The notes: generated by a model from the letters alone, not told the origin. Shown: positions 1,543 through 50,310, numbered from the stretch's first letter. The stretch: 53,085 nt of DNA from an uncultured Candidatus Saccharibacteria bacterium (GCA_964433905.1 CAYSSM010000003.1:1-53085); one strand, 5' to 3'. Program-made: numbers and translations.

Positions 1543-1580
1543 TTTTGTTTTGATATTTGATATTTCTAATTGAGCTTTGC

Positions 1581-2648
1581 TCAATAGACCATCATCTTGA
1601 AGGCTTTGGGATCCAATGCCCAAGTCAAGGCATTGTCGATGGTAATTTCTCCTTTCGACACCAATTCGGCCAAAACTTTGTCCAAAGTAATCATCCCTTC
1701 GGAAGCGGAAGTTTGAATGATATTCGGCAGTTGGTGGGTTTTACCTTCGCGAATGGTCGACTGAACCGCCGAATTAGAAACCATAATTTCGCAAGCAACG
1801 ATTCGACCGCCGGAAGTCCGTGGAATAAGTCTTTGTGAGACAACTCCAAGCAAGACATTGGCCAGCTGCATTCTGACTTGCTGCTGTTGATAAGGCGGGA
1901 AAACATCAACGATACGGTCGGCTGTCTGGGATGCAGAATTGGTATGCAAAGTAGTAAAAACCAAATGGCCGGTTTCAGCGAGTGTTAGGGCGGCGTCGAT
2001 TGTCTCCAAGTCACGCATTTCCCCGATTAAAACAACGTTGGGATCTTCGCGCAAAGACGATCGCAGTGCCCGGGCGAAAGAATTGGTATCGGAGCCGACT
2101 TCGCGCTGGGAGACAATTGATTTTTCGTGCTCAAAAACATATTCGATCGGATCTTCGATAGTCACGATATGCTCCGCACGGGCGTGGTTAATATGATTAA
2201 TCATCGCCGCTAAAGTCGTTGATTTGCCGTGACCAGTAGGACCAGTGATAACAACAAAACCTTGCGAAGCGTTGGTAAATTTTTCCAAAAGCGGCGGCAG
2301 GCCTAATTCTTGAAGTGTTTTAATTAGTTTAGGAATAAGACGAAGCGAAGCGGCCATGTTGCCTTTTTGAAAATAGGAATTAGTTCGAAAACGAGTCGTT
2401 TGATAACCAAAAGAAAAATCAACCTCTTTTCTTACTTTAAGGCGCTCGAGTTGTTCTTGAGTCATAAACGACTGAATTAGACGGCTAACTGCTTCAGATG
2501 AAAGCTCGGCTTCGGACGGAACGGGAGACAATTTTCCGTCAATTCTCACCATCGGCGGAATGTTTACCGTAAGATGAAGATCGGACGCTTTTCGCTCAAT
2601 GGCAAAATCCAAAAGCTTTTTCATCAAAGGGTCTAAAGTAATTTGCAT
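1581..2648 (-). CDS. pilT: Pilus retraction (twitching motility) ATPase PilT
   Basis: 355 aa. Walker A GPTGHGKST, Asp box IVTIEDPIEY, His box GHLVFTTLHTNSA. PilT-sized secretion ATPase. Confidence 0.9.
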   Translation of the reverse strand: MQITLDPLMKKLLDFAIERKASDLHLTVNIPPMVRIDGKLSPVPSEAELSSEAVSRLIQSFMTQEQLERLKVRKEVDFSFGYQTTRFRTNSYFQKGNMAASLRLIPKLIKTLQELGLPPLLEKFTNASQGFVVITGPTGHGKSTTLAAMINHINHARAEHIVTIEDPIEYVFEHEKSIVSQREVGSDTNSFARALRSSLREDPNVVLIGEMRDLETIDAALTLAETGHLVFTTLHTNSASQTADRIVDVFPPYQQQQVRMQLANVLLGVVSQRLIPRTSGGRIVACEIMVSNSAVQSTIREGKTHQLPNIIQTSASEGMITLDKVLAELVSKGEITIDNALTWALDPKAFKMMVY

Positions 2649-2713
2649 AAATCCTCCTTTATAAATTTCTAATTAACCTAATTATACTAATTGACCTAAT
2701 AAATACCCGATGT

Positions 2714-4918: not shown

Positions 4919-4950
4919 TCTCCCTCCTTACAGGAGAACTATTATTTAAC

Positions 4951-4983
4951 TATAGTATATAAAATATCGCCTCCAACTGTCAA
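4951..4983 (-). promoter_or_regulatory. Candidate sigma70-type promoter for pilB
   Basis: Minus strand reads TTGACA-GTTGGAGGCGATATTTTA-TATACT. About 30 nt further on is the AAGGAGG SD. Confidence 0.4.
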
Positions 4984-5087
4984 CCGCTTCGACTTTGCTC
5001 ACGGTTGACACTGAGAGACAAGTTTATTCCGAACGTGCTCCCTTACCAAGTTTTAGCATTGTCGTCGAAGTGTCAAATTCGCAATTT

Positions 5088-5161
5088 TGGCAGGAGTTGA
5101 GGGAATCGAACCCCCGACCCTTCTTTTGGAGAGAAGCGTTTTACCACTAAACTAAACTCCC
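5088..5161 (-). tRNA. tRNA-Trp (anticodon CCA), CCA end encoded
   Basis: Hand-folded: GGGAGTT TA GTTT AGTGGTA AAAC G CTTCT CTCCAAA AGAAG .. GGGGG TTCGATT CCCTC AACTCCT G CCA. G1-U72 wobble, discriminator G. Confidence 0.85.
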
Positions 5162-5187
5162 ATTAACTAAAATGTTAAAACTGCATG

Positions 5188-5297
5188 ATAAACTACTCTG
5201 CGGCTTGCCGCAGAGTATCCTGCGGAAAGTTTGTTTCCAAACAGGTTTTCATCCCCGCAGCAAACTGCGGGGTATTCAACCTGTTGAAAATAAAAGC
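5188..5297 (+). repeat. Structured intergenic repeat, family R, copy 1 (two-hairpin form)
   Basis: ATAAACTAC-[CTCTGCGG cttg CCGCAGAG]-TATCC..AAAGTTTGTTTCCAAACAGGTTTTCATCC-[CCGCAG caaa CTGCGG]-GGTATTCAACCTGTTGAAAATAAAAGC. Conserved modules are shared with copies at 16523 and 23229. Confidence 0.7.
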
Positions 5298-5320
5298 AAA
5301 AGGGTTATTTACTGTATACT

Positions 5321-5416
5321 GTCATCCTGAAGCGTCAGCTGAAGGATCTCTTGTAAATGTAAGTTTATAATGCTCAGACAAGCTGAGAGATTCTTCGGCT
5401 AACGCCTCAGAATGAC
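5321..5416. repeat. MITE-like inverted-repeat element (30-nt arms), family M, intergenic copy
   Basis: Left arm GTCATCCTGAAGCGTCAGCTGAAGGATCTC (5321-5350). Reverse complement of the right arm is GTCATTCTGAGGCGTTAGCCGAAGAATCTC (5387-5416). 25/30 positions match. The same arms occur inside glyQS at 41354-41439. Confidence 0.65.
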
Positions 5417-5452
5417 TTTTCTGTATCACCATTTAAGCTTTAACCAAAGAAA

Positions 5453-5632
5453 TTATTTTTTTGCTTTACTGATCTTTGCTTCCTTGTGCAAAGTATGTTT
5501 ACGGCATTTTTTACAGAATTTACTAAGCTGTAATTTTTCTTTATTTTCTGCCGGATTTTTGCTGGTAGTGTAATTTCTTGATTTACACTCGGTGCATTCA
5601 AACTGAAATAAAATTGATTTAGTCTTGGCCAT
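5453..5632 (-). CDS. rpmG: 50S ribosomal protein L33
   Basis: 59 aa, below the ORF-track cutoff. Hand translation: [59 protein letters not shown]. CxxC..CxxC zinc ribbon; SD AAAGGAA upstream. The listed ORF 5440..5640 is the wrong frame. Confidence 0.9.
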
Positions 5633-5650
5633 TTCGTCATTCCTTTCTAA

Positions 5651-5725
5651 TGGAGCCCATGAGCGGATTTGAACCGCTAACCTGCTGTTTACAAAACAGC
5701 TGCTCTACCATTGAGCTACACGGGC
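5651..5725 (-). tRNA. tRNA-Thr (anticodon TGT), CCA encoded
   Basis: GCCCGTG TA GCTC AATGGTA GAGC A GCTGT TTTGTAA ACAGC AGGTT AGCGG TTCAAAT CCGCT CATGGGC T CCA. Confidence 0.9.
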
Positions 5726-5749
5726 TTATAAAAATGAATATTTGTTTCA

Positions 5750-5824
5750 TGGAGCCCGAGAGGGGACTTGAACCCCTGGCCTATTCCTTACCATGGAATT
5801 GCTCTGCCTCTGAGCTACTCGGGC
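5750..5824 (-). tRNA. tRNA-Thr (anticodon GGT), CCA encoded
   Basis: GCCCGAG TA GCTC AGAGGCA GAGC A ATTCC ATGGTAA GGAAT AGGCC AGGGG TTCAAGT CCCCT CTCGGGC T CCA. Confidence 0.9.
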
Positions 5825-5829
5825 ACTAC

Positions 5830-5863
5830 GGCGGGTGAATCTACCACTGAGCTATCCGGGCCC
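5830..5863 (-). pseudogene. tRNA-derived fragment (acceptor plus D-arm only)
   Basis: Minus strand GGGCCCGGATAGCTCAGTGGTAGATTCACCCGCC. It has a D-arm-like AGCTCAGTGGTAGA but no anticodon or T arm, and abuts the 5' end of tRNA-Thr(GGT). Confidence 0.35.
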
Positions 5864-5920
5864 TTCACTGACACTCAGGGTAAACTGAGTTTATACTGAA
5901 GCCGCCGTTGGCGGCCGAAG

Positions 5921-6007
5921 TGGTGCCGGAGGTAGGATTCGAACCTACGAAGCTGTGAAGCGTCGGTTTTACAGACCGCTGGGTTTGTCCACTTCCCGTA
6001 CTCCGGC
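5921..6007 (-). tRNA. tRNA-Tyr (anticodon GTA), long variable arm, CCA encoded
   Basis: GCCGGAG TA CGGGAAGTGGACAAACCC A GCGGT CTGTAAA ACCGA CGCTTCACAGCTTC GTAGG TTCGAAT CCTAC CTCCGGC A CCA. Layout parallels bacterial class II tRNA-Tyr. Confidence 0.85.
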
Positions 6008-6628
6008 ATTATTCGTTCTATACTTATTTTTATAATAATCTATTGCTTTTTTAACCTCCAAAAGTAATTTTTTATCGCAATATCTAAGATGGATTAAACC
6101 ATTTACCATTTTCCGACCATTTTTTCTAAAATCATTTCTGACATATGGTTTAGAAAATTGTCTCCTGGGAATCCCCGTTAAATTGCTCCAAAAATTAATT
6201 AAACTATCAACATCTTGATCTGTATAGCAATATAATAGAATCCTCAACTTTTTTTCATCAATTTCGTAAATATTTCTTAAAAATTTAAGAAATATCGTAA
6301 TCATTTCCGGATCACTGTTGGCGAAATCTACAATGCTTCCTTTTTCGCTCGTGTAACCCTCGCTCCAATAAAGCATTGTGCCGATAACTTTTAATTCCCT
6401 TAGTAAAACAGAATCAATAAGTCTAAGTTTAAAAGAAGGTGATTTTCTTTCAAAATGTAATCGATTTATTTCAGAAAAATTTCTCCGTTTTAGTTTATGT
6501 TTTCTCATAAAATAAATGACCGCATCAATTGATACATCAAGTTTTTCGGCTATTTGACGCATGCATAGCTGATTACCATAATAAAGTTTTTTGATCTCAA
6601 CCAATCTATTGTCTAAAATCTTACTCAT
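5969..6628 (-). CDS. HTH plus LAGLIDADG-like putative homing endonuclease; 3' end reads into tRNA-Tyr
   Basis: 219 aa. N-terminal HTH-like CMRQIAEKLDVSIDAVIYFMRKH. Has GTMLYWSEGYTSEKGSIVDFANSDPEMITIFLKFLRNIY, a LAGLIDADG-type motif followed by a conserved beta-alpha segment. The last 13 codons are the tRNA-Tyr 5' half and the stop is the TAA of the anticodon loop. Confidence 0.5.
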   Translation of the reverse strand: MSKILDNRLVEIKKLYYGNQLCMRQIAEKLDVSIDAVIYFMRKHKLKRRNFSEINRLHFERKSPSFKLRLIDSVLLRELKVIGTMLYWSEGYTSEKGSIVDFANSDPEMITIFLKFLRNIYEIDEKKLRILLYCYTDQDVDSLINFWSNLTGIPRRQFSKPYVRNDFRKNGRKMVNGLIHLRYCDKKLLLEVKKAIDYYKNKYRTNNAGVREVDKPSGL

Positions 6629-7313: not shown

Positions 7314-8077
7314 ACAAACACCTCGACTTTTTCCCCTTTTTTGGTTTCAACGACGATTTTGCCTTCCAGGATGCTGTAGCCGCTGACAATCCCTTCAGCT
7401 TTTGGCGATGAATATTTACTGCCTATTTTCGGCATTTTCTTTTTTAATTCTTGGTAATTTTGAGCCTCAAAAGCCAAGCAGCACATTAATTTTCCACAAC
7501 AACCGAATAATTTGTTGGTATTGGAGGTTGAAAGCTCTTGCGTCTGGGCCATTTCCAAAGTAACACTTTCTAAATTATTTAAGAATTTGGAACAACATAG
7601 TTCCCTACCACAACGGCCGATGCCGCCGAAATGTTTGGCTTCATCACGCGAGCCGACTTGCTGAAGGCGGATTAGTTTATTGTAAGATTTGGCTAAATCG
7701 GTAACTAAACTGCGGAAATCAACCCGCCCGGCGGCGCAAAAATAAAAAGTCAGTTTTTTCTCGTCAAAGGAAATATCGACATCCAAAATTTTCATATTGA
7801 GGCCGTGGCGAAAAACTTTTTTTCTGCTTTCTTCCAAATATCCTCGGGCCTGTTTTTTTAGATTTACTAAATTCACCCGGTCGTCAGAACTAACGATTCG
7901 GATAATTTTTCCGTTACCGGTTTCTGCTTCGCCATTTTCCGGCTTTTCAACTAAAACTGCTTGCTCGACAATGCCGTCATTTTCCGCTAGAATTTCCTGG
8001 CCGGAACCCAACGATAAATCGGTCTCAAAAAGATATATTTTTCCCGTTGACGGAAACTTAATAAATATTTTTTTCAT
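7310..8077 (-). CDS. ricT: PSP1 domain protein (YaaT/RicT-like)
   Basis: 255 aa. Cys-rich PSP1 signature GRCGRELCCSKFL and FGCCGKLMCCLAFE. Lies downstream of holB, as in Firmicutes holB-yaaT. Confidence 0.8.
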   Translation of the reverse strand: MKKIFIKFPSTGKIYLFETDLSLGSGQEILAENDGIVEQAVLVEKPENGEAETGNGKIIRIVSSDDRVNLVNLKKQARGYLEESRKKVFRHGLNMKILDVDISFDEKKLTFYFCAAGRVDFRSLVTDLAKSYNKLIRLQQVGSRDEAKHFGGIGRCGRELCCSKFLNNLESVTLEMAQTQELSTSNTNKLFGCCGKLMCCLAFEAQNYQELKKKMPKIGSKYSSPKAEGIVSGYSILEGKIVVETKKGEKVEVFV

Positions 8078-8084
8078 TTTAAAA

Positions 8085-8735
8085 TTAAAATTTTAATAAT
8101 AGATTTTCTAATAGTAATTTTACCGAAGTATTGGTTAAAAGTAAACCTCTTGCCTTAACAATTTCTTTTAGAACGGTTTTTTTATCATGACCGGCCAATA
8201 ATTCTTCCCGAAAACTTTTTTCCCATAAATCGATGATTTTATTAAGATCGGGATTTTCCGACAGTTTGTTGGCATAATCAAAACGTTCTTTAATTGACAT
8301 TTGACCAATCTTTTTAAAATCTACAAAATCGCCTATCTCAACTTCGTCTTCATTTTTCTGGTATAATTTCTGGCATCTTGATTCGATAGTCGGAAGTATT
8401 TTTTCTTTTTTAGCGGCTGTCATAATAATAATCGAGCAAGATGGAGGTTCTTCTAAAGTTTTTAGCAAACAATTGGCGGCATCTAAAGTCAGATTTTCGA
8501 TGTTGTGGATAACCGCCAGTTTATTTTTAGAACTATGCGGTTTGAGAGTAATCCAATGAATTAGCTCGCGAATATGGTCAATTTTGACCGGATTTTCTTT
8601 TAGCTCAATAAGATCGGCGGTATTTACAGTTAAAATTTTTGCTATCAAAGCAATGTCGACTTTGCCAAAAATAATATAAGCGTGGCTTAAACGATCATTT
8701 TTCAGTTGATGTTTTAAAATATCTAAGACTTTCAT
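8085..8735 (-). CDS. holB: DNA polymerase III delta-prime subunit (short form)
   Basis: 216 aa. LSHAYIIFG, NCLLKTLEEPP and TIESRCQ motifs of clamp-loader delta-prime. Confidence 0.8.
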   Translation of the reverse strand: MKVLDILKHQLKNDRLSHAYIIFGKVDIALIAKILTVNTADLIELKENPVKIDHIRELIHWITLKPHSSKNKLAVIHNIENLTLDAANCLLKTLEEPPSCSIIIMTAAKKEKILPTIESRCQKLYQKNEDEVEIGDFVDFKKIGQMSIKERFDYANKLSENPDLNKIIDLWEKSFREELLAGHDKKTVLKEIVKARGLLLTNTSVKLLLENLLLKF

Positions 8736-9170: not shown

Positions 9171-9338
9171 TTATTTAGATGTAAGATTAGTTTTTTGTTT
9201 GGATCTTAAGCAAGCAGTGCAAATATATTTGCCCTGGAATTTTTGAATATTCGGTTTGATTATTCTTTTAGTCCGGTGCAACGAATGAGGACGGTTGTAT
9301 CCAACTTTCGGACTCTTTTCACATATTGCGCAATTCAT
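9171..9338 (-). CDS. rpmB: 50S ribosomal protein L28
   Basis: 55 aa, not in ORF track. Hand translation: MNCAICEKSPKVGYNRPHSLHRTKRIIKPNIQKFQGKYICTACLRSKQKTNLTSK. Matches the L28 pattern C..C.K....G.....HS...TKR...PN.Q. SD AAAGG upstream. Confidence 0.85.
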   Translation of the reverse strand: MNCAICEKSPKVGYNRPHSLHRTKRIIKPNIQKFQGKYICTACLRSKQKTNLTSK

Positions 9339-9475
9339 AATGCCTTTCTTTTTTGCTAATGACTAACTTTTTAGCAAGGTTAATAAGGTAGTTTTTTGAT
9401 ATGCTTTGATGCTATTTAGATATTAATTACCGACAATTTATGTTATCATATTAAAGAAACAAAAACAAGGCTAAG

Positions 9476-10279: not shown

Positions 10280-12475
10280 ATGGCATATGAAATACAATTT
10301 GCAAGAGTGACAAATTCCGGAAAATTATCCGACAGATTTTTAACATGCAAACACATAACCGCCGATGATTTGGCAAAATTCCCTATGGGTCAGGTTTTTT
10401 CACTAATAGAAATAATTTCACCATGGTTTCCAACTGCTCAAGTAGGACAAACAATCATTAATAATTTTTCTAAGTACTATTATGAAGGCGGCAGCACATC
10501 TGATTTGGTAAACCTGGAAAATTCACTTAAAAAGGTGAATGAGGATTTAGCCCAAATTACCCAAAACGGCGAAACTGATTGGATCGGCAATCTTAATGGT
10601 ATTTTGGCCGTAATTGCCGGTAATAATTTCCATCTATCGCCTACCGGCAAAGTCGAGGGATATATATTTCGCGACGGCAAAATTAATCACTTAACATACG
10701 GACTTCAAGATAGCGGTGAACCGCATCCGCTGAAAACTTTTTCGAATGTCGTTTCCGGAGAATTAAAAAGTCACGATAAAATCCTATTAACTACTAAAGA
10801 GCTTTTCAACCATCTTTCTTTGGAGTCGGTGCGGCAAATTATTTCTATTAATAATCCGTCAATGGCGGCGCAACAAATTTCTAAACTGCTGAGAAAAAAC
10901 AAAATTAGAAATGTTAACATCATTATCATCAACCTTCTCACAAAAGAAGAAGTTTCCAATGAACAGGCATTTGGAGAGATGGAAAATGTTTACTACTTAG
11001 ATAAAACGACCGAAGGAGTAATGGGCAAAATAAATGACATCTGGAAATCATTTCTTGTTCCTTTCGGCAAAATCATCAAACATAAAAGTAAGGATTTTGG
11101 CAAAAAAACATCGAACCTAACAAAAAATATTGTCAAAGAACCGATTACAAATCAAGAACCGGTAGGAAAACAAGATGATGCTTATCAAGAGTTTCTCGAT
11201 CCCGATAAAAGAGATGACAGTCTCCTAAAAGACGAGGAGATTAAGTATTCGCCAGAGCTTTATGTTCATTATTACGATCAGAAGAAAAATAAACAAAATT
11301 CTTTCTTCGATCAAGTAAAAAATGTCCTTTTTAAAATTTGGTTAAAGTTGAAACAATTCTTTACCTGGATAATTGATATTTATCACGATAAAGCAAGAAG
11401 AAAATATCTCTATATTGCCTTAGCAGTCATACTAATATTAATAATAGGCCTCGTAGTCGGCTTAAAAAATAAAAAGTCCCCTATTGGCAATTTAGACGCC
11501 CAAAAGATTCTTGACGAAGCTTCGGCTGCTGAAAAAGACGGTAAAAATGCGGTGGTAGCAGGAGATAAAGAAAAAGCTAAAGCGCAATTTATTATCGCTA
11601 TTGATAAAGCTAAAAGCATAAAAAGTAATTCCCTGGTAGCAAGAGACGCCGATCAGGTAATCATCAGCACTTATCAAGAATTAGATAAACTGACTTCAAC
11701 CACCCGTTTCAACACACTGACTTCAATAGCCAATATTGCCGATGCAAAAAGTATCTTTGTTGTCTCGGGTATTGGCTTTATTATTACCGACAAGGATATT
11801 TACGAAGTAAATACTCTTGGCGGCACACCGTCTAAAGTTGCGACTATCCCTAAAAATAAGAATTATCTTATCGGCACGCGTCAAGAAAAAATTATTTATC
11901 TTTATACAAGCGATCAAAATATATATAGTTTTAATACCAGCACTAAAAAAATCGAACAAGTAAAAATCACTGATGACAACAAATGGGAAACGGCAAATTC
12001 AATCGCTAGCTATGTCGGCACTTTTTATCTTTTAGACGGAGTCTTGGGTCAAATTTACAAACATTCATCGAGCGCTGACGAGTTCCAAAAAGGCGAAGAA
12101 TACATCAACACAACCAACATTAATTTAAAATCTGCGCGCTCGATTGCCATTGATGGTTCGATCTATGTTCTAAAAGAAAATGGTCAAGCCGTAAAATTGT
12201 TAAAATCGAAAGTCCAGGATTTCTCATTACAAAACATTCCCACGCCAAATGATAAAATCGCTGAACCAATTAAAATATTTACCGATGCGGACACACCCTC
12301 GGTTTATGTTCTTGATGGAGCCCAAAAACGAATTGTTGAATTCGATAAAGACGGTTATTTTGTTCGTCAATACGCTTTCTTAGAAAACATTAAATATTCT
12401 GACTTTTTCGTATCAGTAAAAGCCCGCAAAATCTGGTTGATCGGCGAAAATAACTTATACGAAATATCAATTTAA
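10280..12475 (+). CDS. Hypothetical bitopic membrane protein with a C-terminal beta-propeller-like repeat region
   Basis: 731 aa. Single central TM (YLYIALAVILILIIGLVVGL). The C-terminal half has recurring blades (..IYEVN, ..IYSFN, ..IYKH, ..IYVLKENG, ..VYVLDGAQKRIVEFDKDG). Function unknown. Confidence 0.6.
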   Translation: MAYEIQFARVTNSGKLSDRFLTCKHITADDLAKFPMGQVFSLIEIISPWFPTAQVGQTIINNFSKYYYEGGSTSDLVNLENSLKKVNEDLAQITQNGETDWIGNLNGILAVIAGNNFHLSPTGKVEGYIFRDGKINHLTYGLQDSGEPHPLKTFSNVVSGELKSHDKILLTTKELFNHLSLESVRQIISINNPSMAAQQISKLLRKNKIRNVNIIIINLLTKEEVSNEQAFGEMENVYYLDKTTEGVMGKINDIWKSFLVPFGKIIKHKSKDFGKKTSNLTKNIVKEPITNQEPVGKQDDAYQEFLDPDKRDDSLLKDEEIKYSPELYVHYYDQKKNKQNSFFDQVKNVLFKIWLKLKQFFTWIIDIYHDKARRKYLYIALAVILILIIGLVVGLKNKKSPIGNLDAQKILDEASAAEKDGKNAVVAGDKEKAKAQFIIAIDKAKSIKSNSLVARDADQVIISTYQELDKLTSTTRFNTLTSIANIADAKSIFVVSGIGFIITDKDIYEVNTLGGTPSKVATIPKNKNYLIGTRQEKIIYLYTSDQNIYSFNTSTKKIEQVKITDDNKWETANSIASYVGTFYLLDGVLGQIYKHSSSADEFQKGEEYINTTNINLKSARSIAIDGSIYVLKENGQAVKLLKSKVQDFSLQNIPTPNDKIAEPIKIFTDADTPSVYVLDGAQKRIVEFDKDGYFVRQYAFLENIKYSDFFVSVKARKIWLIGENNLYEISI

Positions 12476-15895: not shown

Positions 15896-16411
15896 TTATT
15901 TTTTATCATTTAGGTTAAACATTTCTAAATATTTCTCTTCATTAGTTAATGCTTTTGAAATAAAATAATCCACATTTTTCTCAATATCTAAAAGCTCAAA
16001 CAATTCTTCTAAATCCGCTGATATATCCTGAGGCGTAATCCAAACCGATTTTTGAATCGGCAAGCAACCTAAATTTTGTAATTTATCTCGAAAAACATCG
16101 CGGGTTTTCTTTCTCGACTCTTCGATATCAAAAGCAATTATCCGCCAAAAACCATCCCATTTTTTAAAAATTCTTTTCCGAATAAGTTTTAATCTGCCTT
16201 TGGAGGTTATTTTTAAAAATTTGTTACCTTTATTCTCCACCTCTTCCAAATACCCGCGTTGTTTAAGTTCCCAGATTGCCCTTGAGAAACTACCCTTATA
16301 TTTCTTAAACGATTTACCGAAACCTTTGTAGGGATACAAAAATGCCGCCGTTTCTCCCACTCCGCCAGCAACAACCGCCAAGATTTTTTCAGTTAGAGTT
16401 TTTCTCCGCAT
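15896..16411 (-). CDS. PaaX-like winged-helix regulator with a Cas2-like/PaaX C-terminal-type fold (tentative)
   Basis: 171 aa. wHTH-like FSRAIWELKQRGYLEEV, then WDGFWRIIAFDIEESRKKTRDVFRDKLQNLGCLPIQKSVWITP. AAGGAGGGG SD. Confidence 0.45.
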   Translation of the reverse strand: MRRKTLTEKILAVVAGGVGETAAFLYPYKGFGKSFKKYKGSFSRAIWELKQRGYLEEVENKGNKFLKITSKGRLKLIRKRIFKKWDGFWRIIAFDIEESRKKTRDVFRDKLQNLGCLPIQKSVWITPQDISADLEELFELLDIEKNVDYFISKALTNEEKYLEMFNLNDKK

Positions 16412-16434
16412 TCGTAAATCCCCTCCTTAAAAAC

Positions 16435-16468
16435 ATTGTAACTTTCCCGCGATCGCGGTTTTATTGTA
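16435..16468 (-). promoter_or_regulatory. Promoter-operator cassette copy upstream of the PaaX-like gene
   Basis: Minus strand TACAATAAAACCGCGATCGCGGGAAAGTTACAAT, followed by the SD and ATG at 16411. Confidence 0.45.
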
Positions 16469-16522
16469 TAACTTTTTCTTTTTTACGAAAACTATAACAA
16501 AAATAGTTAAGACATTTTGGAT

Positions 16523-42596: not shown

Positions 42597-43082
42597 CTAC
42601 TTGCCGGCCTCGCTACCTTCGGTGTCGAGACGAACGCGGACTACCCGGCAGAAGGGGAACCAGTCGCCGATAAGTGAATCGAGATACAGAATCCACTTAC
42701 CAACATAGTGTGCGCAAACGATGGCTTGATAACCGCGTGAGCACCCGCCAACTTTGCCGCCCGGCCAGACAGTGCCTGTAAAAACCAGTGTGAGTCCACG
42801 CCACTCGACAGGGATACCGTCTTCCTGCTCAAGCATGCGCTCGGCGTAAGACAAACCGGTCGGACCGCCGGGCATTTCCTTCACCCGATCCATCATTTCC
42901 GTCTTCTTAACGTAAGTCTCCCCGTCAGCCTGGATCCTCTCTAAAAACAGCGTTGGCTGGCCGACAACTGGACCAATGTCAGATATCAACCCTTTGCGCA
43001 TCAGCAGCTCCGCTTCTGTCAAATCCCTGGACGGAGTCTCCCGCAAGACCATTTCAGGCAAGGACTGTGTACCCGTCATCAT
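42597..43082 (-). CDS. Hypothetical cytoplasmic protein, GC-rich orphan (likely horizontally acquired)
   Basis: 161 aa. AAGGAG SD 10 nt upstream of ATGATG. Composition visibly GC-rich relative to neighbours. No signal peptide and no recognisable motif. Confidence 0.6.
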   Translation of the reverse strand: MMTGTQSLPEMVLRETPSRDLTEAELLMRKGLISDIGPVVGQPTLFLERIQADGETYVKKTEMMDRVKEMPGGPTGLSYAERMLEQEDGIPVEWRGLTLVFTGTVWPGGKVGGCSRGYQAIVCAHYVGKWILYLDSLIGDWFPFCRVVRVRLDTEGSEAGK

Positions 43083-43293: not shown

Positions 43294-44055
43294 GAACCTC
43301 TTCCGCACCTGGCAGGTGCGGAAAATGGTTAGGAATGTTATACTAGAGTTAAGATGAGAAAAAATCCCTTGGCAAATGGAGAAGTATATCATGTTTTTAC
43401 TAGAAGCATTGCTGACTTTAAGATTTTTAATGATGCTTTAGAGTATGATCGAATATTACAACTTATTAGGTATTATCAAGTGAAAAATAAATCAAAATTC
43501 TCAGATTTTATTGATTCAAGCATTGTCCATCAGATTGGGTTCGATGCGGCGCTGGAAACGGTTTCGAAAAATAATAATCCCCTGGTACAAATAATCGCCT
43601 ATTGTTTGATGCCGACACATATCCATCTGATACTAAAACAACTAACTGACAAAGGCATCTCTATTTATATGAGCAATATTCTCAATGGCTATACAAGATA
43701 TTTCAATATCAAACACCAAAGAAAAGGACCATTATGGGAAAGTGAATTTAAAAATGTCTTAGTAAAGGATGATGAACAACTACTACATTTGACGAGGTAT
43801 CTTCATCTTAACCCCACGACTGCCGACCTTATTAAGAAACCGGAAGATTGGGTATTTTCATCGTATAAAGAGTACCTTTCTCAAACCGAGTCCGATATTT
43901 GTGAATTTGAAGGTATCTTGGAAATTAATCATTCAATATATCGTAAGTTCGTCAATGATAGAATTGCCTACCAAAGAGAACTCGCTAAAATTAAAAGTTT
44001 GATATTAGACTGAACCTTATTCCGCACCTGGCAGGTGCGGTAGATGGTTAGGAAT
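43294..44055 (+). mobile_element. IS200/IS605-like (RAYT-type) unit: Y1 HUH transposase gene flanked by near-identical hairpin repeats
   Basis: A ~43-nt direct repeat at 43294-43336 and 44012-44055 contains hairpin TTCCGCACC-tggca-GGTGCGGAA followed by (A/T)A(A/G)ATGGTTAGGAAT. The right copy overlaps the alr stop codon. Confidence 0.55.
43354..44013 (+). CDS. Y1 (HUH) transposase, IS200-like / REP-associated tyrosine transposase family
   Basis: 219 aa. HUH motif CLMPTHIHLIL and catalytic-Tyr region LTRYLHLNP. Confidence 0.75.
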   Translation: MRKNPLANGEVYHVFTRSIADFKIFNDALEYDRILQLIRYYQVKNKSKFSDFIDSSIVHQIGFDAALETVSKNNNPLVQIIAYCLMPTHIHLILKQLTDKGISIYMSNILNGYTRYFNIKHQRKGPLWESEFKNVLVKDDEQLLHLTRYLHLNPTTADLIKKPEDWVFSSYKEYLSQTESDICEFEGILEINHSIYRKFVNDRIAYQRELAKIKSLILD

Positions 44056-45133: not shown

Positions 45134-45854
45134 ACAAATATCCTTCCGATTTTAATTCTTTGCCACTAGTATGTTTTAAATATCCCCGGGTGATCTGCCT
45201 AATTTCTTTGGATAAATTATTTTCGGTTTTTAATTTATCGATAACAGAAATTCTGTGTTGTAAAAATAACCGTAAAACTTTGATCGCTTCGCTGGAAATG
45301 GAATGTCCGATATCGTGGCGGCAATTTTTACACATCAATCCCCCACTTTCGAAACTAAAAAAATTGCCGGCTTCTTCTAACTTTTTACTGCAGGAAATAC
45401 ATTTATTAAGTTCTGGATGAAAACCAGTTTCTGCTAAAAAATTAAATTCAAAATAAGAGATTAATAAATCGTTTTTTTTTCCATCCAGATGTTCTAATGA
45501 ATTTTCCAATAGCTCAAAAATTTCTTTATGTGGCTCACGATCTTCCGTCAATTTATCAATAATTTCGGCAAAATAAAATGCTGTTTGAGTGGCTTTTAAG
45601 TTACCGCGCAGATTCTTAAAACATTTAGTCGTAACCGCACCCGCCACCGTATCCAACGATCTTCCTTCGACCAAAAGAAGATCATCAACGCAAAATAATT
45701 CAAGATAGCCGGCGAGCTTGCTCAAAGTTTTCCGGACGCCGCGAGCGACGGCTTTTATTTTTCCCAAATCGAAAGTTAAGATCGTTAGAATTCTGTCAGC
45801 TTCACCCAAATTAGATCGTTTAATAATTATGCCGTGGCATTTAAATGTTGCCAT
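45126..45854 (-). CDS. recO: DNA repair protein RecO
   Basis: 242 aa. OB-fold N-domain (GIIIKRSNLGEADRIL) and zinc motif CISC..CKNC. Confidence 0.88.
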   Translation of the reverse strand: MATFKCHGIIIKRSNLGEADRILTILTFDLGKIKAVARGVRKTLSKLAGYLELFCVDDLLLVEGRSLDTVAGAVTTKCFKNLRGNLKATQTAFYFAEIIDKLTEDREPHKEIFELLENSLEHLDGKKNDLLISYFEFNFLAETGFHPELNKCISCSKKLEEAGNFFSFESGGLMCKNCRHDIGHSISSEAIKVLRLFLQHRISVIDKLKTENNLSKEIRQITRGYLKHTSGKELKSEGYLYE

Positions 45855-46608
45855 TTCTCTTCTTTAATACTTTTTCTGCTTGTTTAAGCTGGTCGGGCGT
45901 ATTAATTCCTAATGCTTCTTCCTCATCGGAAACTGGGATTGCAAGGATTTTTTTACCTTGATTACAGGCAATTTCAACAATATCAGTTAAATAAAATTCT
46001 CCTTGAGAATTTTTTTTCTCAATCTTTTTGCCATTTTCCCAAAACCAATCAGCATTAATAATATAAAAGCCGGGATTAGATTCTTTGATTTTTAATTGCT
46101 CCGGCGTGCAGTCTTTTTGTTCTGTAATACCGATAACTTCGTTTTTTTTATTTCTGATAATACGGCCAAAAGCCCAGAATTCCGGATCTTCAAAATTTAC
46201 CGAAAGCATGGCGATGGTTGGTCTTTCTTTTTCATATAGATCTATAAGTTTTTTAATTGTTTCCGTTTTATACAATGGATTATCGCCATAAAAAACAATA
46301 ATAGATTCGGTTTTGCCTTTGAGTACGCTTGCCGCCTGCGTAGTGGCATGACCCGTACCAAGCTGTTTTTCTTGAACCACATATTCGACATCTTTTCCCA
46401 TATAATTCTCAACTAATTCTTTTTTGTAGCCGACAACCAAAACCACTTTTAAAATACCGGCACCTTTAATGGCTTTTACCGAATGCCAAACAATAGGTTT
46501 TCCTAACATTTCAAACATTACTTTAGGAATAGGACTAGCTTTACCTTCATTCATTCTTGTCCCCTTACCCGCCACTAAAATTATCGCCGCATATTTTTCT
46601 TGTTTCAT
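45841..46608 (-). CDS. Sugar-phosphate nucleotidyltransferase (GlmU N-terminal-domain-like, no acetyltransferase LbH domain)
   Basis: 255 aa. LVAGKGTRM and QLGTGHA motifs. Confidence 0.8.
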   Translation of the reverse strand: MKQEKYAAIILVAGKGTRMNEGKASPIPKVMFEMLGKPIVWHSVKAIKGAGILKVVLVVGYKKELVENYMGKDVEYVVQEKQLGTGHATTQAASVLKGKTESIIVFYGDNPLYKTETIKKLIDLYEKERPTIAMLSVNFEDPEFWAFGRIIRNKKNEVIGITEQKDCTPEQLKIKESNPGFYIINADWFWENGKKIEKKNSQGEFYLTDIVEIACNQGKKILAIPVSDEEEALGINTPDQLKQAEKVLKKRNGNI

Positions 46609-46678
46609 TTAATACTCCTTTAAGATTATTTTAACAGATATGAGACAAATGGTAAACCCCATAATTAACACTAACTCC

Positions 46679-46720
46679 TTGACAAAAGTATTTGACAAGA
46701 AAATATATCCCGTGATACTT
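46679..46720 (+). promoter_or_regulatory. Tandem candidate promoters for the beta-barrel gene
   Basis: TTGACA (46679) and TTGACA (46692)-N17-ATACTT. The ~90-nt leader has hairpins TTTGATG..CATCAAA and GTTGGGTTT..AAACCCAAAC. Confidence 0.4.
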
Positions 46721-46812
46721 TGATGTTGGGTTTAATCTATCAGTCATCAAAAGAAGGGGGAAGAAAAAACGACTGCAAACCCAAACAACGCTGATCCATA
46801 GGAGGGACTGTT

Positions 46813-47367
46813 TTGCAAAACAGGAATGTTGTGTTGACCGGTCTGATGCTCGTCTGTATGGTGTTGATTTTCTCCGCCACCGCGTTCGCGGCCGGCAACG
46901 AAGTGGGCGTCGGCATCTATTCGTCGTCCGGAGACTTGGGCTATGGCACGAAGCTCGATGCCCAAACCACGCTTGGCCACCTCAAGAACCTCGACATCGT
47001 CGCCGATTACGCTCATGTCTGGGGCCTCGACGACAGTGCCACGGCCACCAATGGCAACCTCTGGGCGACCGCTGAACTCAAGGCCAAGGCTGATTATCTC
47101 GGCGTCGGAGTTCGGAAGTCCAATGGACGTCTCAATGCCAGTGTGACCATCGGCGCGGCGCGATCTGCTGCCAGAGCGACTGTCACTGTCGGCAACCAGT
47201 ATGGCGCTATCGCCTCCGCCAGCGCAAGCGATAGCACGACCAAGTTTGCCTGGCAGCCCAAGCTCAGCTACGAATTGGGCAGCAATGTCTCACTGACTGC
47301 CTCGTACCTGGGCACCGGCACCAAGGCCACCAGCGGCTACAACCTCGGAGTAGCCTACCGCTTCTAG
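46813..47367 (+). CDS. Exported 8-strand-type outer-membrane-protein-like beta-barrel (OMP_b-brl/OmpA-TM-like)
   Basis: 184 aa. TTG start 7 nt after GGAGG. Signal peptide ..FSATAFA|AGNE. Alternating hydrophobic beta-strand pattern. C-terminal ..YNLGVAYRF (terminal Phe beta-signal). GC-rich. Confidence 0.7.
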   Translation: MQNRNVVLTGLMLVCMVLIFSATAFAAGNEVGVGIYSSSGDLGYGTKLDAQTTLGHLKNLDIVADYAHVWGLDDSATATNGNLWATAELKAKADYLGVGVRKSNGRLNASVTIGAARSAARATVTVGNQYGAIASASASDSTTKFAWQPKLSYELGSNVSLTASYLGTGTKATSGYNLGVAYRF

Positions 47368-47403
47368 AAACCGGGACATCCGCCGGCAGATGTCTCACAT
47401 CTT

Positions 47404-47443
47404 CCCCTCCTCAAAGTATCGAGGAGGGGATCTTTTTATTTTA
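47404..47443 (+). terminator. Rho-independent terminator after the beta-barrel gene
   Basis: CCCCTCCTC-aaagtat-c-GAGGAGGGG-atCTTTTTATTTT. Confidence 0.7.
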
Positions 47444-47473
47444 TTGACAAATGCATTTTCATGATTGTATAAT
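47444..47473 (+). promoter_or_regulatory. Candidate promoter for the small exported protein gene
   Basis: TTGACA-N18-TATAAT. GGGAG SD 8 nt before the ATG at 47511. Confidence 0.55.
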
Positions 47474-47510
47474 ATTCTTGGAAAGAATACTAAAAAAGGG
47501 AGAACCATCG

Positions 47511-47897
47511 ATGAGAATGATTGCGGTCGTTGTGGTTGTAATTCTGATAGGAATGGTCACCGCATGGGGAGAGCTAACCAAAATTCCAACCCCTTCTCGA
47601 GGAGTAATCGCTCAACCTTTGATATTCGAACCGCTCGACTACTCGACTCCTGGATATGGGAGTGTTGGCACTGGAGTTGCCACTGGTCTTTCTCGTTTCA
47701 CTTGGCCTCGTTTTGAGATAGTGGAAGACCTCACCAACCCCTCTCAAGTATTGGCTGAACGCTCAGTCATCAACAATCCCAGTTTCCTTGATAGAGGTTT
47801 TCTCAACCAAACACCATCGGTGACCCGAGGACCATTTACCAACATCTCCTCACTTTTTACTGAAATCAAGGTAACGCCTATGGGCGCTGCCAAATAG
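47511..47897 (+). CDS. Hypothetical small exported/membrane-anchored protein
   Basis: ORF 47451..47897 trimmed to MRMIAVVVVVILIGMVTAWG|ELTK.. (the SD-supported ATG). 128 aa, no lipobox, no prepilin motif, no recognisable family. Confidence 0.55.
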   Translation: MRMIAVVVVVILIGMVTAWGELTKIPTPSRGVIAQPLIFEPLDYSTPGYGSVGTGVATGLSRFTWPRFEIVEDLTNPSQVLAERSVINNPSFLDRGFLNQTPSVTRGPFTNISSLFTEIKVTPMGAAK

Positions 47898-47920
47898 ACC
47901 CAAATTCTTTCCACCCATTT

Positions 47921-47960
47921 GCCGGGACTTAAAACTTATTAGGCCCCGGTCTTTTTTTTT
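47921..47960 (+). terminator. Possible terminator after the small exported protein gene
   Basis: Short stem GCCGGG..CCCGGT followed by T9. Confidence 0.4.
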
Positions 47961-47972
47961 GACTAAAAATAG

Positions 47973-48002
47973 TTGACAAAAATCATATAATGATGATATT
48001 AT
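47973..48002 (+). promoter_or_regulatory. Candidate promoter for the secretin gene
   Basis: TTGACA-N18-TATTAT. AAGGAGG SD 9 nt before the ATG at 48043. Confidence 0.45.
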
Positions 48003-48042
48003 ATAGTGTCGCTCAAATTAGAGCGCAAGGAGGTTCCACAAA

Positions 48043-49341
48043 ATGCCTAAAGGCATCAGCACTTTGATATTTGTTCTGGTTATCTTGACAGCGATAGCTA
48101 GTGTCGCCTCGGCTGAAGGCGTCCTGGATACCAAGGTCATGATAAACTACCAAAACAAACCATTCGCCGAAGTCATGACCGATCTGGCCACCCAAGCGAA
48201 GACGCTGGTCAAGTTCGATCCGGCTATCTCGGGAAGTATCACATTGGATTTGGGAGAAACGACTCTGTCCAACGCGTTCAACCAGATCGCCGTGATAACC
48301 GAGACCTATTGGGGTTTGACGCCTGATGGCGTTATCGTGGTTGCCCCACCCAACCCCAAGGGTCCTTATTTCAAGGATATCTCTGAAGTCAGGACCATCA
48401 AGGTCAACCACATCACGGTTGACGAGGTGGTCAAGGCGCTAGCTGATCATCCGTACCTCGGCTTTGCCAAACCGGTTCAGAGCATCAACTCTCTAAGCGT
48501 CATTGCCCCGCCAGCCATCATCGCTCGGCTGGAAGCTGATGTCCGACGGGTCGATGTTCCCAAGCCAATGACCAAAACCAAAGTGGCAGTCCTTGATACC
48601 AGCCGGGTAAAGGACAAAAGGTTCAATATCGACTGGGAATACACCACGGGGTTAGAAAGCACCGGGCCAACAGTTCGCACGATTCAGCTGGCTGGTATGG
48701 ACTTGGGCTACACTAGTATTGGGGCACAAAAAATCCTGATGAGTTTGAAAAACAGCTATTCCAAAGACGAGCTCAAGATTATGGCTCAGCCAGAACTGGT
48801 GGCTCGAGATAACGAAGAAGCAACCCTGAGTTTCGTCAAGCGCTACACGGTACCGTCGGCGATTTTCTATGGCGTTACAACTCCACCGGCTCAATTCAAA
48901 GAGATCGAAGCTGGTATCAAGCTGAAAGTCCGGCCGAGAGTGATTGTTGGTGAAGACGGAGAAAAGTGGATCTTGATTACCATCGAACCGAATGTCTCCG
49001 AGGTGGTTGGCACTGGTCCCTACGGAGTGCCGGTGGTCAACCTGCGCGAAATCTCCTCGACTCTCTTGGTTCGGAACGGGGAAACGATTATCGCGGCCGC
49101 CTCGGTCTCCGATCTCGGCTACGAAATCAAAACCGTAACCAAGGTTCCTATTCTCTCTGAGATTCCGTTGATTGGCAAGCTTTTCATTTGGCCTTCAAAA
49201 CGCCGCGAGGCCAGGAATCAGGAAATTACGATCCTGATAACGCCCAAGATCCTCGAGGCAGGGGAAAAAGAGCCTGAGGTTGAGAAGGCCAAAGTGATAA
49301 TCGAGGAGAGAACACCAGAGAAAGCCCAACCAACCAACTGA
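48043..49341 (+). CDS. Secretin family protein (minimal N0-N3-secretin architecture; pIV/RcpA-sized)
   Basis: 432 aa. Signal peptide ..IASVASA|EG. N0/STN-like domain (NYQNKPFAEVMTDLATQAKTLVKFDPAISGSITLDL). N3-like domain (VRTIKVNHITVDEVVKAL). C-terminal secretin signature ..LVRNGETIIAAA..VTKVPILSEIPLIGKLF..NQEITILITPKIL. Charged tail. Confidence 0.85.
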   Translation: MPKGISTLIFVLVILTAIASVASAEGVLDTKVMINYQNKPFAEVMTDLATQAKTLVKFDPAISGSITLDLGETTLSNAFNQIAVITETYWGLTPDGVIVVAPPNPKGPYFKDISEVRTIKVNHITVDEVVKALADHPYLGFAKPVQSINSLSVIAPPAIIARLEADVRRVDVPKPMTKTKVAVLDTSRVKDKRFNIDWEYTTGLESTGPTVRTIQLAGMDLGYTSIGAQKILMSLKNSYSKDELKIMAQPELVARDNEEATLSFVKRYTVPSAIFYGVTTPPAQFKEIEAGIKLKVRPRVIVGEDGEKWILITIEPNVSEVVGTGPYGVPVVNLREISSTLLVRNGETIIAAASVSDLGYEIKTVTKVPILSEIPLIGKLFIWPSKRREARNQEITILITPKILEAGEKEPEVEKAKVIIEERTPEKAQPTN

Positions 49342-49359
49342 TCAGTCCGATCAGTTCCA

Positions 49360-49414
49360 CCGCTGCGGTAAGCAGAAACAGAAATGTTTTTGTCCTGCCG
49401 TAGCGGTTTTTTTT
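49360..49414 (+). terminator. Rho-independent terminator after the secretin gene
   Basis: CCGCTGCGG..(gcag/ctgc)..CCGTAGCGG-TTTTTTTT. Confidence 0.6.
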
Positions 49415-49467
49415 GTAAATTTTAGCCAAAGTACCACTTCGGAAGTGTGATTCAAAAGGTTGGGATG

Positions 49468-50310
49468 TTATTTTTGACAAATATCGCAATAGAAAGTTCC
49501 CCGACCACCGATGGTGATTCTTTTTACCGCATGGCCTTTGGGATCGGTTTTCTTTTGATAAATTGATGTAACTTCCATATATCTGCCTTTTTTGCCTTCA
49601 ATATTAACATAGGTATTTTCTGATGAGCCACCGTATTCCAAACCCAACTTCAAGACTTTTTCGATTGCATTTTTTAGTTTTGATATCTCATTATCAGATA
49701 AAGATTTTGCTGGTCGCGTTGGCATAATGCCGGCAACATACAAACCGTCATTAGCATAAATATTGCCGACACCGGAAATTTTAGCTTGATCCATTAAAAC
49801 TAATTTAATTGCCTTGTTTGATTTTGAAAAAATCTTCTTCAGATATTTAGATGTGAATTCTTTTTTCCCAGGTTCTGGACCGTACTTATCGGGACCTAAT
49901 ATTTTATCTATCTCTGATGTTTTTACAACTTTATTCCAACCGAATTTTCTAAAATCGTTAAAATAAAGATGAGAACCATCGGAAAAAGTATATGTTATGT
50001 GAGTGTAGGCGTGCGGCAATGGTTGGTCGTAAGCTTTCTGCGAATGTCCCCCAACAGCTTTCGATTTATCGTCTTTATAAATAAGCTGCCCTGTCATTTT
50101 CAAGTGAACAATAATTGAATTGCCGTTATCTAAAACTATTTGCAGGACTTTTGCCACTCGTTTGGCGTCGATAATTTTGCCACCGATAATATCGTTTATA
50201 TCGCCAATAAAAAGCTTCGGCACTTTTATTTCTACATCAGAGATCTTTTTACCTTTGAGCTTTTCGACGATTCCTTTACGAATTGTTTCGACTTCCGGTA
50301 ATTCGGGCAT
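49468..50310 (-). CDS. mutM: Formamidopyrimidine-DNA glycosylase (Fpg/MutM)
   Basis: 280 aa. MPELPEVE N-terminus, H2TH domain, C-terminal zinc finger (..CDICQK). Confidence 0.92.
   Translation of the reverse strand: MPELPEVETIRKGIVEKLKGKKISDVEIKVPKLFIGDINDIIGGKIIDAKRVAKVLQIVLDNGNSIIVHLKMTGQLIYKDDKSKAVGGHSQKAYDQPLPHAYTHITYTFSDGSHLYFNDFRKFGWNKVVKTSEIDKILGPDKYGPEPGKKEFTSKYLKKIFSKSNKAIKLVLMDQAKISGVGNIYANDGLYVAGIMPTRPAKSLSDNEISKLKNAIEKVLKLGLEYGGSSENTYVNIEGKKGRYMEVTSIYQKKTDPKGHAVKRITIGGRGTFYCDICQK

Follow-up and report, generated by a model that had tools for sequence, protein, structure and literature searches.

An apparently mobile secretin cassette beside an OmpX-like barrel gene in a candidate phyla radiation-type genome

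Secretins and OmpX-like beta-barrels are hallmarks of the diderm envelope, and surveys of the candidate phyla radiation (CPR) use the absence of the secretin PilQ as evidence for a single membrane: CPR genomes have been reported to lack PilQ and, apparently, an outer membrane (PMC6744442, PMC7143001), and secretins have been treated as absent from monoderms (PMC6668835). What, then, does it mean when a secretin gene, a gene for a small exported protein, and a gene for an OmpX-like barrel stand side by side in a genome of CPR type? We address this question for a stretch of 53,085 nucleotides (nt) from an uncultured Candidatus Saccharibacteria bacterium (GCA_964433905.1, CAYSSM010000003.1:1-53085; hereafter, the window), in which these three genes make up a foreign insert of 2.86 kb, referred to below as the island. 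We find that a real secretin, partner, and barrel module has very probably been acquired here. The explanation that we favor as a whole, an acquired island of two modules whose secretin works as a pore with its partner protein, has a probability of about 0.5 in our estimate. Our literature search found no paper mentioning a secretin in Berkelbacteria or the related assembly GCA_000992805.1.

The island holds three open reading frames (ORFs), all on the plus strand, between a glmU-like gene and mutM, which both lie on the minus strand. Its composition differs sharply from that of its surroundings: In 500-nt windows, the GC content is 0.45-0.55 versus 0.30-0.42 in the flanks, and the GC content at third codon positions (GC3) reaches 0.746 in the barrel gene, 0.434 in the small-protein gene, and 0.612 in the secretin gene, as compared with 0.25-0.46 (typically ~0.33) for genes elsewhere in the window, with the one exception of an orphan gene at 42597-43082 (0.636). 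Among 126 sliding windows, the island ranks first as a tetranucleotide outlier (z = 4.8-4.9, r = 0.46 to the window profile). The initial annotation, made by a model from the sequence alone, had pointed to a GC-rich, three-gene, plus-strand island full of antisense phantom ORFs, and these measures, together with an ORF map in which the phantom ORFs appear, agree with that description. In the relatives L012, L014, and L015, mutM is followed directly by the glmU-like gene and then by recO, all on one strand; thus, the window carries an insertion within a conserved gene string. Two further relatives have unrelated hypothetical ORFs, on the same strand, at the mutM/glmU-like junction (L011, 660-1592, 310 amino acids (aa); L013, 3485-4684, 399 aa), so the site is variable.

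Contigs from several sources encode exactly the same proteins: NCBI GCA_000992805.1 LBUX01000002, two ENA scaffolds that come from separate Rifle samples, a MEGAHIT contig, also from ENA, and one contig each from JGI and Logan. At least six independent assemblies reproduce the junctions. Over the island, one of the ENA scaffolds shows 100% identity to the window, and another is a strain variant (99.7%) with the same junctions; wherever the NCBI, ENA, and JGI contigs reach the junctions, the identity is 99.5-100%, and the Logan contig keeps the gene order of the window. As for the host, the best GTDB matches of the glmU-like gene are metagenome-assembled genomes (MAGs) of Berkelbacteria, Patescibacteria, and Saccharibacteria (49-53% identity), which share the mutM-glmU-recO synteny, and the flanking housekeeping genes are thus nearest to those of CPR/Patescibacteria. 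These matches uphold the CPR-type host that had been proposed at the outset, and, judged from its sequence, the host is a Berkelbacteria-type CPR genome.

The secretin (432 aa) consists of a signal peptide, an N0 domain, a single ring domain of N3 type, the secretin domain, and, following the barrel, a C-terminal tail that is charged and conserved. It scores 94.3 bits against PF00263 (cutoff, 27.5; residues 240-404), whereas the Pfam families Secretin_N and STN match below threshold only, so that of the domains that the initial annotation wanted checked by hidden Markov models (HMMs), the secretin domain was recovered and the two N-terminal ones were not. Residues 30-175 match the N0-N1 crystal structures of GspD (E = 5e-5), and the AlphaFold2 model, with a predicted local distance difference test score (pLDDT) of 76.8, contains two beta-alpha-beta-beta-alpha modules at ~90. 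When this model was searched with Foldseek, the top 40 matches were all secretins; PDB 7ofh (pIV) was among the matches, and BfpB-BfpG had the highest query TM-score among those listed (0.51). A profile of the secretin clade found GspD in the PDB at 127 bits, and also PilQ, with pIV at 79 bits and RcpA at 61 bits, and PHROG 1012 (M13 pIV) aligns with the secretin end to end (E = 5e-20). Membership in the secretin superfamily therefore holds for the secretin domain and for the N0 plus ring domain. The scores are far below the NCBIfam cutoffs for GspD (TIGR02517, 86.9 versus 351), PilQ (TIGR02515, 81.7 versus 284), and SctC (TIGR02516, 76.7 versus 238), and we therefore class the protein as an unclassified minimal secretin with the layout of pIV. 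Its cleavage site is ordinary (ASA, then E) and not that of a lipoprotein. The protein is a bona fide secretin, of a new clade that has a new partner family.

Comparison with known secretins places this clade between several systems. With pIV of phages f1 and M13, it shares its length (f1 pIV has 426 aa), its minimal layout, the lack of a lipoprotein signal, and a stand-alone gene with its own promoter. It differs from pIV in its low identity (~22%), in the absence of phage genes from any context, in its residence in CPR, and in that secretins of the window type are always paired with a small exported protein, which the phages lack; being neither in a phage genome nor closely similar, it is not an inovirus pIV. 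GspD and PilQ provide the best profile and fold matches for the secretin domain and N0-N1, and the window secretin has their canonical amphipathic loop, VP(I/L)L..IP(L/I)(I/L)G.LF. Unlike them, however, it has no extra N-domains, no AMIN domains, and no recognized S-domain, it has AAS in place of GGL, and no type II secretion system (T2SS) or type IV pilus platform genes adjoin it. The gene order is that of BfpG-BfpB (PDB 9u5s), in which a small exported protein is likewise encoded immediately before its secretin, but the small protein has no detectable similarity to BfpG, and BfpB belongs to a full pilus operon that is absent here. BfpB is a lipoprotein, and TcpQ-TcpC is another type IVb pilus pair of a small periplasmic protein and a secretin. 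The RcpA and RcpB proteins of Tad systems are likewise a secretin and a small outer-membrane protein encoded side by side; RcpA, however, is a weaker match than GspD, PilQ, and pIV, and tad genes are lacking here. More distant secretins were seen on contig L030, where three tandem paralogues (1576-6225; 423, 569, and 556 aa) with ~25% identity to the window secretin lie among sugar-metabolism genes, with no pilus or secretion genes nearby.

The partner, a Pro/Gly-rich protein of 128 aa, constitutes a new family. Its mechanical ORF begins at 47451, and the ATG at 47511 has a GGGAG Shine-Dalgarno site and opens a cleavable-looking signal peptide (TAWG, then E) without a Cys lipobox; the mature part is rich in Pro and Gly. 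We found no significant match to it in Pfam, NCBIfam, PHROGs, or a PDB profile search (the best NCBIfam score was 16.8 bits, far under the 172-bit cutoff), nor any relative in IMG/VR. The hhalign probability was 0.2% against both BfpG and a PilP-position protein, and hhalign found no similarity to the partner of the L025 type described below. With neither a lipobox Cys nor homology, the protein is not a partner of pilotin, PilP, or BfpG type. Each of the three island proteins thus has a signal peptide, and the barrel, small exported protein, and minimal secretin that the initial annotation had read from the sequence are all there, with the secretin (PF00263) and the barrel (PF13505, 34.6 bits) above their Pfam cutoffs.

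The small protein and the secretin travel together. Only six close relatives of the secretin (36-86% identity) exist among 5.8 billion clustered proteins, the next being at ~25%, and the pair, hereafter the cassette, was found in at least five other genomic contexts with a host GC of 0.37-0.62. Homologues of the small protein lie directly upstream of the secretin in L001 (secretin identity of 86% in aa and 85.5% in nt; host GC, 0.46), in L003 and L004 (secretin, 43%; host GC, 0.62, with sulfatase and FG-GAP genes), and in L017 (secretin, 46%; AT-rich, with a relA flank of GC 0.37). In L018 and L025/L027 (secretin, 36%), the slot is filled by a different small exported Pro-rich protein that is divergently transcribed. 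The flanks of L025 and L027 are AT-rich, and that of L027 holds PaaX_M, FtsH, DivIC, and MurJ genes, the first three as seen in small genomes; L025 was the only new context added by a scan of JGI metagenomes. Between the window and L001, the 85.5% nucleotide identity covers 47442-49312 only: The homology sets in precisely at the -35 box of the small-protein gene and includes the terminator of that gene, and the promoter moves with the cassette between genomes (85-91% nucleotide identity). The GC3 of the cassette stays at ~0.5-0.66 while that of its hosts ranges from 0.26 to 0.79. No member of the secretin clade was found in 185,579 GTDB species representatives or in IMG/VR, tblastn identities did not exceed 23% for INPHARED phages and 26% for PLSDB plasmids, and blastn found no plasmid match for the island.

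We read the small protein plus secretin as a very rare, self-contained, promoter-carrying mobile cassette that moves among unrelated genomes within shared groundwater and sediment communities. The estimated ratios of nonsynonymous to synonymous substitution rates (dN/dS; secretin, 0.22 and 0.19; small protein, 0.41 and 0.30) point to purifying selection on the cassette (0.2-0.4), and the strain variant differs by two single-nucleotide polymorphisms (SNPs), both synonymous. The recurrence of the cassette in several unrelated genomes had been missed by the initial annotation. The trio is not a single donor unit: Elsewhere, the small protein goes with the secretin, but the barrel does not.

Contig L001 shows further features around its copy. 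A 5'-truncated second secretin (11533-12289) lies directly downstream of the first and has 91% DNA identity to the L027 copy; therefore, two cassette subtypes landed at one locus. In addition, a Y1-transposase gene and the small-protein and secretin genes together lie between two direct copies of a 46-nt repeat (8600-8645 and 11440-11485, 93% identical), of which an inverted copy of 18-19 nt occurs at 9322-9340. This unit may be an IS200-type element that carries the cassette as a passenger; its repeat motif is absent from the window. A tandem duplication of 84-85 bp (92% identical) was seen in the secretin of L027 (12542-13678) and L025 (7734-7902), which repeats the last part of the signal peptide along with the start of the mature protein.

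In several assemblies, the secretin gene is broken or gapped. The NCBI contig LBUX01000002 lacks 70 bp (48233-48302), which splits the secretin into 70 + 341 aa, and 34 bp (45670-45703), which truncates recO; one ENA scaffold has an N-gap at 48232-48250, and two contigs end inside the secretin, at 48252 and 49062. The longest exact matches between the window and the L001 cassette, at 48278-48332 and 49045-49088, roughly coincide with these breaks, and the L025 and L027 contigs also end inside their own secretins. A tangled assembly of co-occurring cassette variants is sufficient to explain the breaks, and a real variant with the 70-bp deletion may also exist in the population.

The barrel belongs to a separate module that is as rare as the cassette, and the window trio is a local combination of the two. 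The 184-aa protein matches OMP_b-brl (PF13505) over the whole profile, above the cutoff of 28.7 bits, and its AlphaFold2 model, built with three relatives, has eight strands (pLDDT, 80.8), which makes it a member of this family by score and by fold. Ail, OmpX, the transmembrane domain of OmpA (OmpA-TM), and NspA are the best Foldseek neighbors (E = 1e-7 to 1e-6). Accordingly, it resembles the OmpX/Ail/Lom/OmpA-TM barrels in its eight-stranded model, its top folds, its C-terminal aromatic residue, and its Pfam score; it differs from them in its identity of only 13-16% to the best solved eight-stranded barrels (Ail, OmpX, OmpA, and NspA) and in that this family occurs as GC-rich single-gene inserts in CPR-like genomes. 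The signal peptide ends in ATAFA, followed by AG, and the C-terminal motif is YRF. The 53-kb window contains no BamA, LptD, or Lol genes. Merely three relatives are detectable among 1.84 billion representatives, and none in IMG/VR. P0097, one of the three, likewise exceeds the PF13505 cutoff and is encoded by an isolated GC-rich gene (7830-8366, GC 0.53 versus 0.39) on the AT-rich contig L019, which is CPR-like with a secE-nusG-rplK synteny and has no secretin near P0097. The same contig encodes an LPKTG sortase-type anchor protein (15949-16473), which puts an outer-membrane-type barrel beside monoderm-type surface anchoring. No barrel gene is present in L001 or L003. In L017, a weakly related barrel of 148 aa ending in GYRF adjoins the cassette, such that the barrel module and the cassette co-occur at least twice.

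Each island gene has its own expression signals (Table 1). Promoter-like sites numbered 11 against 2.9 expected, GGAGG-type Shine-Dalgarno sites are visible in the island sequence, and a hairpin plus T-run lies 3' of each gene, with folding energies compared with those of shuffled sequence. These promoter and folding scans support the view, put forward in the initial annotation, of three monocistronic units that each have a promoter, a Shine-Dalgarno site, and a terminator. Native genes of the window such as pilB have the same sigma-70-type promoters as the island genes, and the host polymerase should therefore read the island.

Table 1. Coordinates of the island, its flanking genes, and its expression signals, counted from the first nucleotide of the window.
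Feature	Position	Strand	Details
glmU-like nucleotidyltransferase gene	45841-46608	-	host, left flank; ORF map and assemblies
Whole foreign island	46609-49467		inverted relative to flanks, between mutM stop and glmU-like start; tetranucleotide, GC3, empty site in relatives
Promoter-like site, spacer between glmU-like start and barrel gene	46656-46628		promoter scan
Promoter-like site, barrel gene	46692-46719	+	TTGACA-16-GATACT, 10/12; second TTGACA at 46679
OmpX/Ail-like 8-stranded beta-barrel	46813-47367	+	184 aa; Pfam, AlphaFold2, Foldseek
Intrinsic terminator, barrel gene	47403-47440	+	-31.8 kcal/mol, z = -5.0
Consensus promoter, small-protein gene	47444-47473	+	TTGACA-18-TATAAT, 12/12; conserved in L001 cassette copy
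Small exported protein, secretin partner	47511-47897	+	128 aa; Pro/Gly-rich, new family
Terminator hairpin and T-run, small-protein gene	47921-47960	+	-14.1 kcal/mol, z = -2.1; conserved in L001
Promoter-like site, secretin gene	47973-48002	+	TTGACA-18-TATTAT, extended TG, 11/12
Minimal secretin	48043-49341	+	432 aa
Terminator, secretin gene	49359-49415	+	-30.7 kcal/mol, z = -6.8
mutM/fpg gene	49468-50310	-	host, right flank; ORF map and assemblies

As the initial annotation had stated, no convincing direct repeats flank the island, it contains no integrase-size ORF, and no tRNA lies near it (the closest is 36 kb away); there is no transposase inside it either. Lacking an integrase or transposase, repeats, and a tRNA target, it is neither a classical genomic island nor a transposon borne by an insertion sequence (IS). 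Integron attC-like sites were considered and rejected, given that the cassette has its own promoter and that no GTTRRRY cores were seen by eye. An IS200/IS605-like element (43299-44055) does lie 2.5 kb from the island; its Y1-transposase gene (43354-44013, plus strand) lies between two copies of the palindrome TTCCGCACCTGGCAGGTGCGG in direct orientation, at 43301 and 44020, with no further copies in the window, and its transposase is only 34% identical to the Y1 transposase that adjoins the L001 cassette. Just left of this element is a second foreign-looking gene, the 161-aa orphan mentioned above (42597-43082, minus strand; GC 0.558, GC3 0.636), which has no Pfam or PHROG match. Farther off, a PaaX_M/Cas2-like domain protein is encoded at 15896-16411 on the minus strand, with similar proteins in the CPR-like contigs L019 and L025/L027.

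How might such a module work in its host? We put the chance that it is maintained for a function there at roughly even. If so, all three proteins would be exported by Sec, and the secretin would oligomerize into a gated, multimeric beta-barrel pore with its N0 and ring domains facing the producing cell. The small protein would be dedicated to the secretin, helping to assemble or target it or else plugging it; that two unrelated small exported proteins fill the partner slot in two subclades argues for an accessory role rather than for a substrate. The barrel could serve as an auxiliary membrane anchor or adhesin. In a producer without an outer membrane, the pore would therefore have to sit in a bilayer beyond its own cytoplasmic membrane. 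We weakly favor an attached diderm partner, whose outer membrane would be reached from the epibiont side with the normal secretin topology, over the outer face of the producer's own membrane, although the partner's outer membrane as the target is itself doubtful. Insertion into the outer membrane of a diderm host cell had been among the alternatives of the initial annotation, and the comparisons made here speak neither for nor against it. The secretins PulD and pIV, as well as eight-stranded barrels, can assemble in membranes without the beta-barrel assembly machinery (BAM), and self-insertion into another bilayer is therefore physically plausible. A bolder model, which we consider improbable, is that CPR episymbionts export the secretin, partner, and barrel into the diderm partner's outer membrane from the epibiont side: That membrane would then be the symbiont's missing one, with a gated conduit for pili, DNA, or nutrients, and the cassette would spread horizontally among symbionts and neighbors.

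Several points weigh against a working pore in a CPR cell. The widely conserved GGL after GETII reads AAS or ATS in the window and L001 secretins, and a 70-bp frameshifting deletion of the secretin is present in both NCBI LBUX01000002 and Logan SRR29904083. The composition of the island is strongly unameliorated, which makes a recent arrival probable; most of the signal of purifying selection may date from its time in donor lineages. The taxonomic placement of the host contigs L001, L017, L019, and L027 is deduced from their gene content. To our knowledge, no secretin has been seen to enter a foreign outer membrane from the outside.

The main rival to a maintained pore is that the island is neutral, transient cargo, recently transferred from diderm neighbors, unused, and decaying. 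Such ordinary gene flow without function is a serious alternative, although we consider it unlikely on balance. The extreme lack of amelioration (GC3 of up to 0.75 against ~0.33) is what it would predict, as are the variability of the mutM/glmU-like junction, with other unrelated inserts in relatives, the frameshift deletion in two assemblies, the lack of cognate machinery nearby, and the absence of the secretin family from the GTDB species representatives. Decay, however, sits poorly with three ORFs that are intact in the window and the ENA scaffolds, with within-population SNPs that are solely synonymous and a dN/dS of 0.2-0.4, with promoters of the type used by native genes, and with the recurrence of the cassette or a barrel relative in several other AT-rich, CPR-like contigs. 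That the island is instead an assembly or binning chimera, with diderm DNA joined to a CPR contig, had been listed as an alternative in the initial annotation and is effectively refuted. The sharp composition jump at both borders and the assemblies that break or gap inside the secretin gene could have suggested it, but both junctions are reproduced in contigs from NCBI, ENA (two samples plus MEGAHIT), and JGI, with the same gene order in Logan; identical junctions across assemblies therefore exclude a chimera, and the coincidence of the breaks with the longest exact L001 matches fits a cross-genome repeat effect.

Two further origins had been proposed at the outset. The host might have an unrecognized outer layer, with the secretin as the exit pore of its own type IV pilus: PilB-like and PilT-like ATPases are encoded within the window (pilB/pilT, 1581-4918), the secretin retains N0, the domain that normally docks inner-membrane partners, and minimal secretins of 436 aa serve pilMNOPQ operons elsewhere. 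Yet pilB/pilT are 42 kb away from the island, which lacks PilM/N/O/P genes and whose small partner protein is unrelated to a PilP-position protein or BfpG. The island is also absent from close relatives, so it is not core pilus machinery, and surveys and microscopy report neither PilQ nor an outer membrane in CPR (PMC6744442, PMC7143001); this leaves the pilus conduit, weakened by the new comparisons, with a slim chance. The other proposal, that a filamentous prophage (with pIV and a Lom-like barrel) or a Tad (RcpA/RcpB) locus acquired from outside left this remnant, stands in so far as the empty site in relatives speaks for acquisition; a phage or Tad source is very improbable. The end-to-end match to M13 pIV (PHROG 1012), a weak Lom match of the barrel (E = 6e-4), and a size and domain layout equal to those of pIV (PDB 7ofh) would fit such a source. 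However, the best phage proteins are only 22-23% identical to the secretin, none of the three proteins has a relative in IMG/VR, and both GspD (127 bits) and PilQ outscore pIV (79) and RcpA (61). Moreover, Zot/pI, coat, replication, and tad genes occur in none of six contexts, and neither the island nor L001, L003, L004, L017, L018, or L027 contains T2SS, pilMNOP, type III secretion system, or tad genes.

An acquired island of two modules, with a secretin that may work as a pore with its partner, thus remains the reading that we favor. The locus is a verified, multi-sample case of an intact set of secretin, partner, and barrel inside a CPR genome. What is new is a minimal secretin clade and a new partner family on a tiny cassette, which entered a CPR genome beside an orphan OmpX-like barrel. 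If the module is used, it would provide a compact two-protein secretin system and would point to a novel means by which an ultra-small symbiont could form a channel where two cells meet. If it is unused, it would be a clean example of diderm-to-CPR gene flow and would call for caution in inferring the envelope type of such organisms from single markers.

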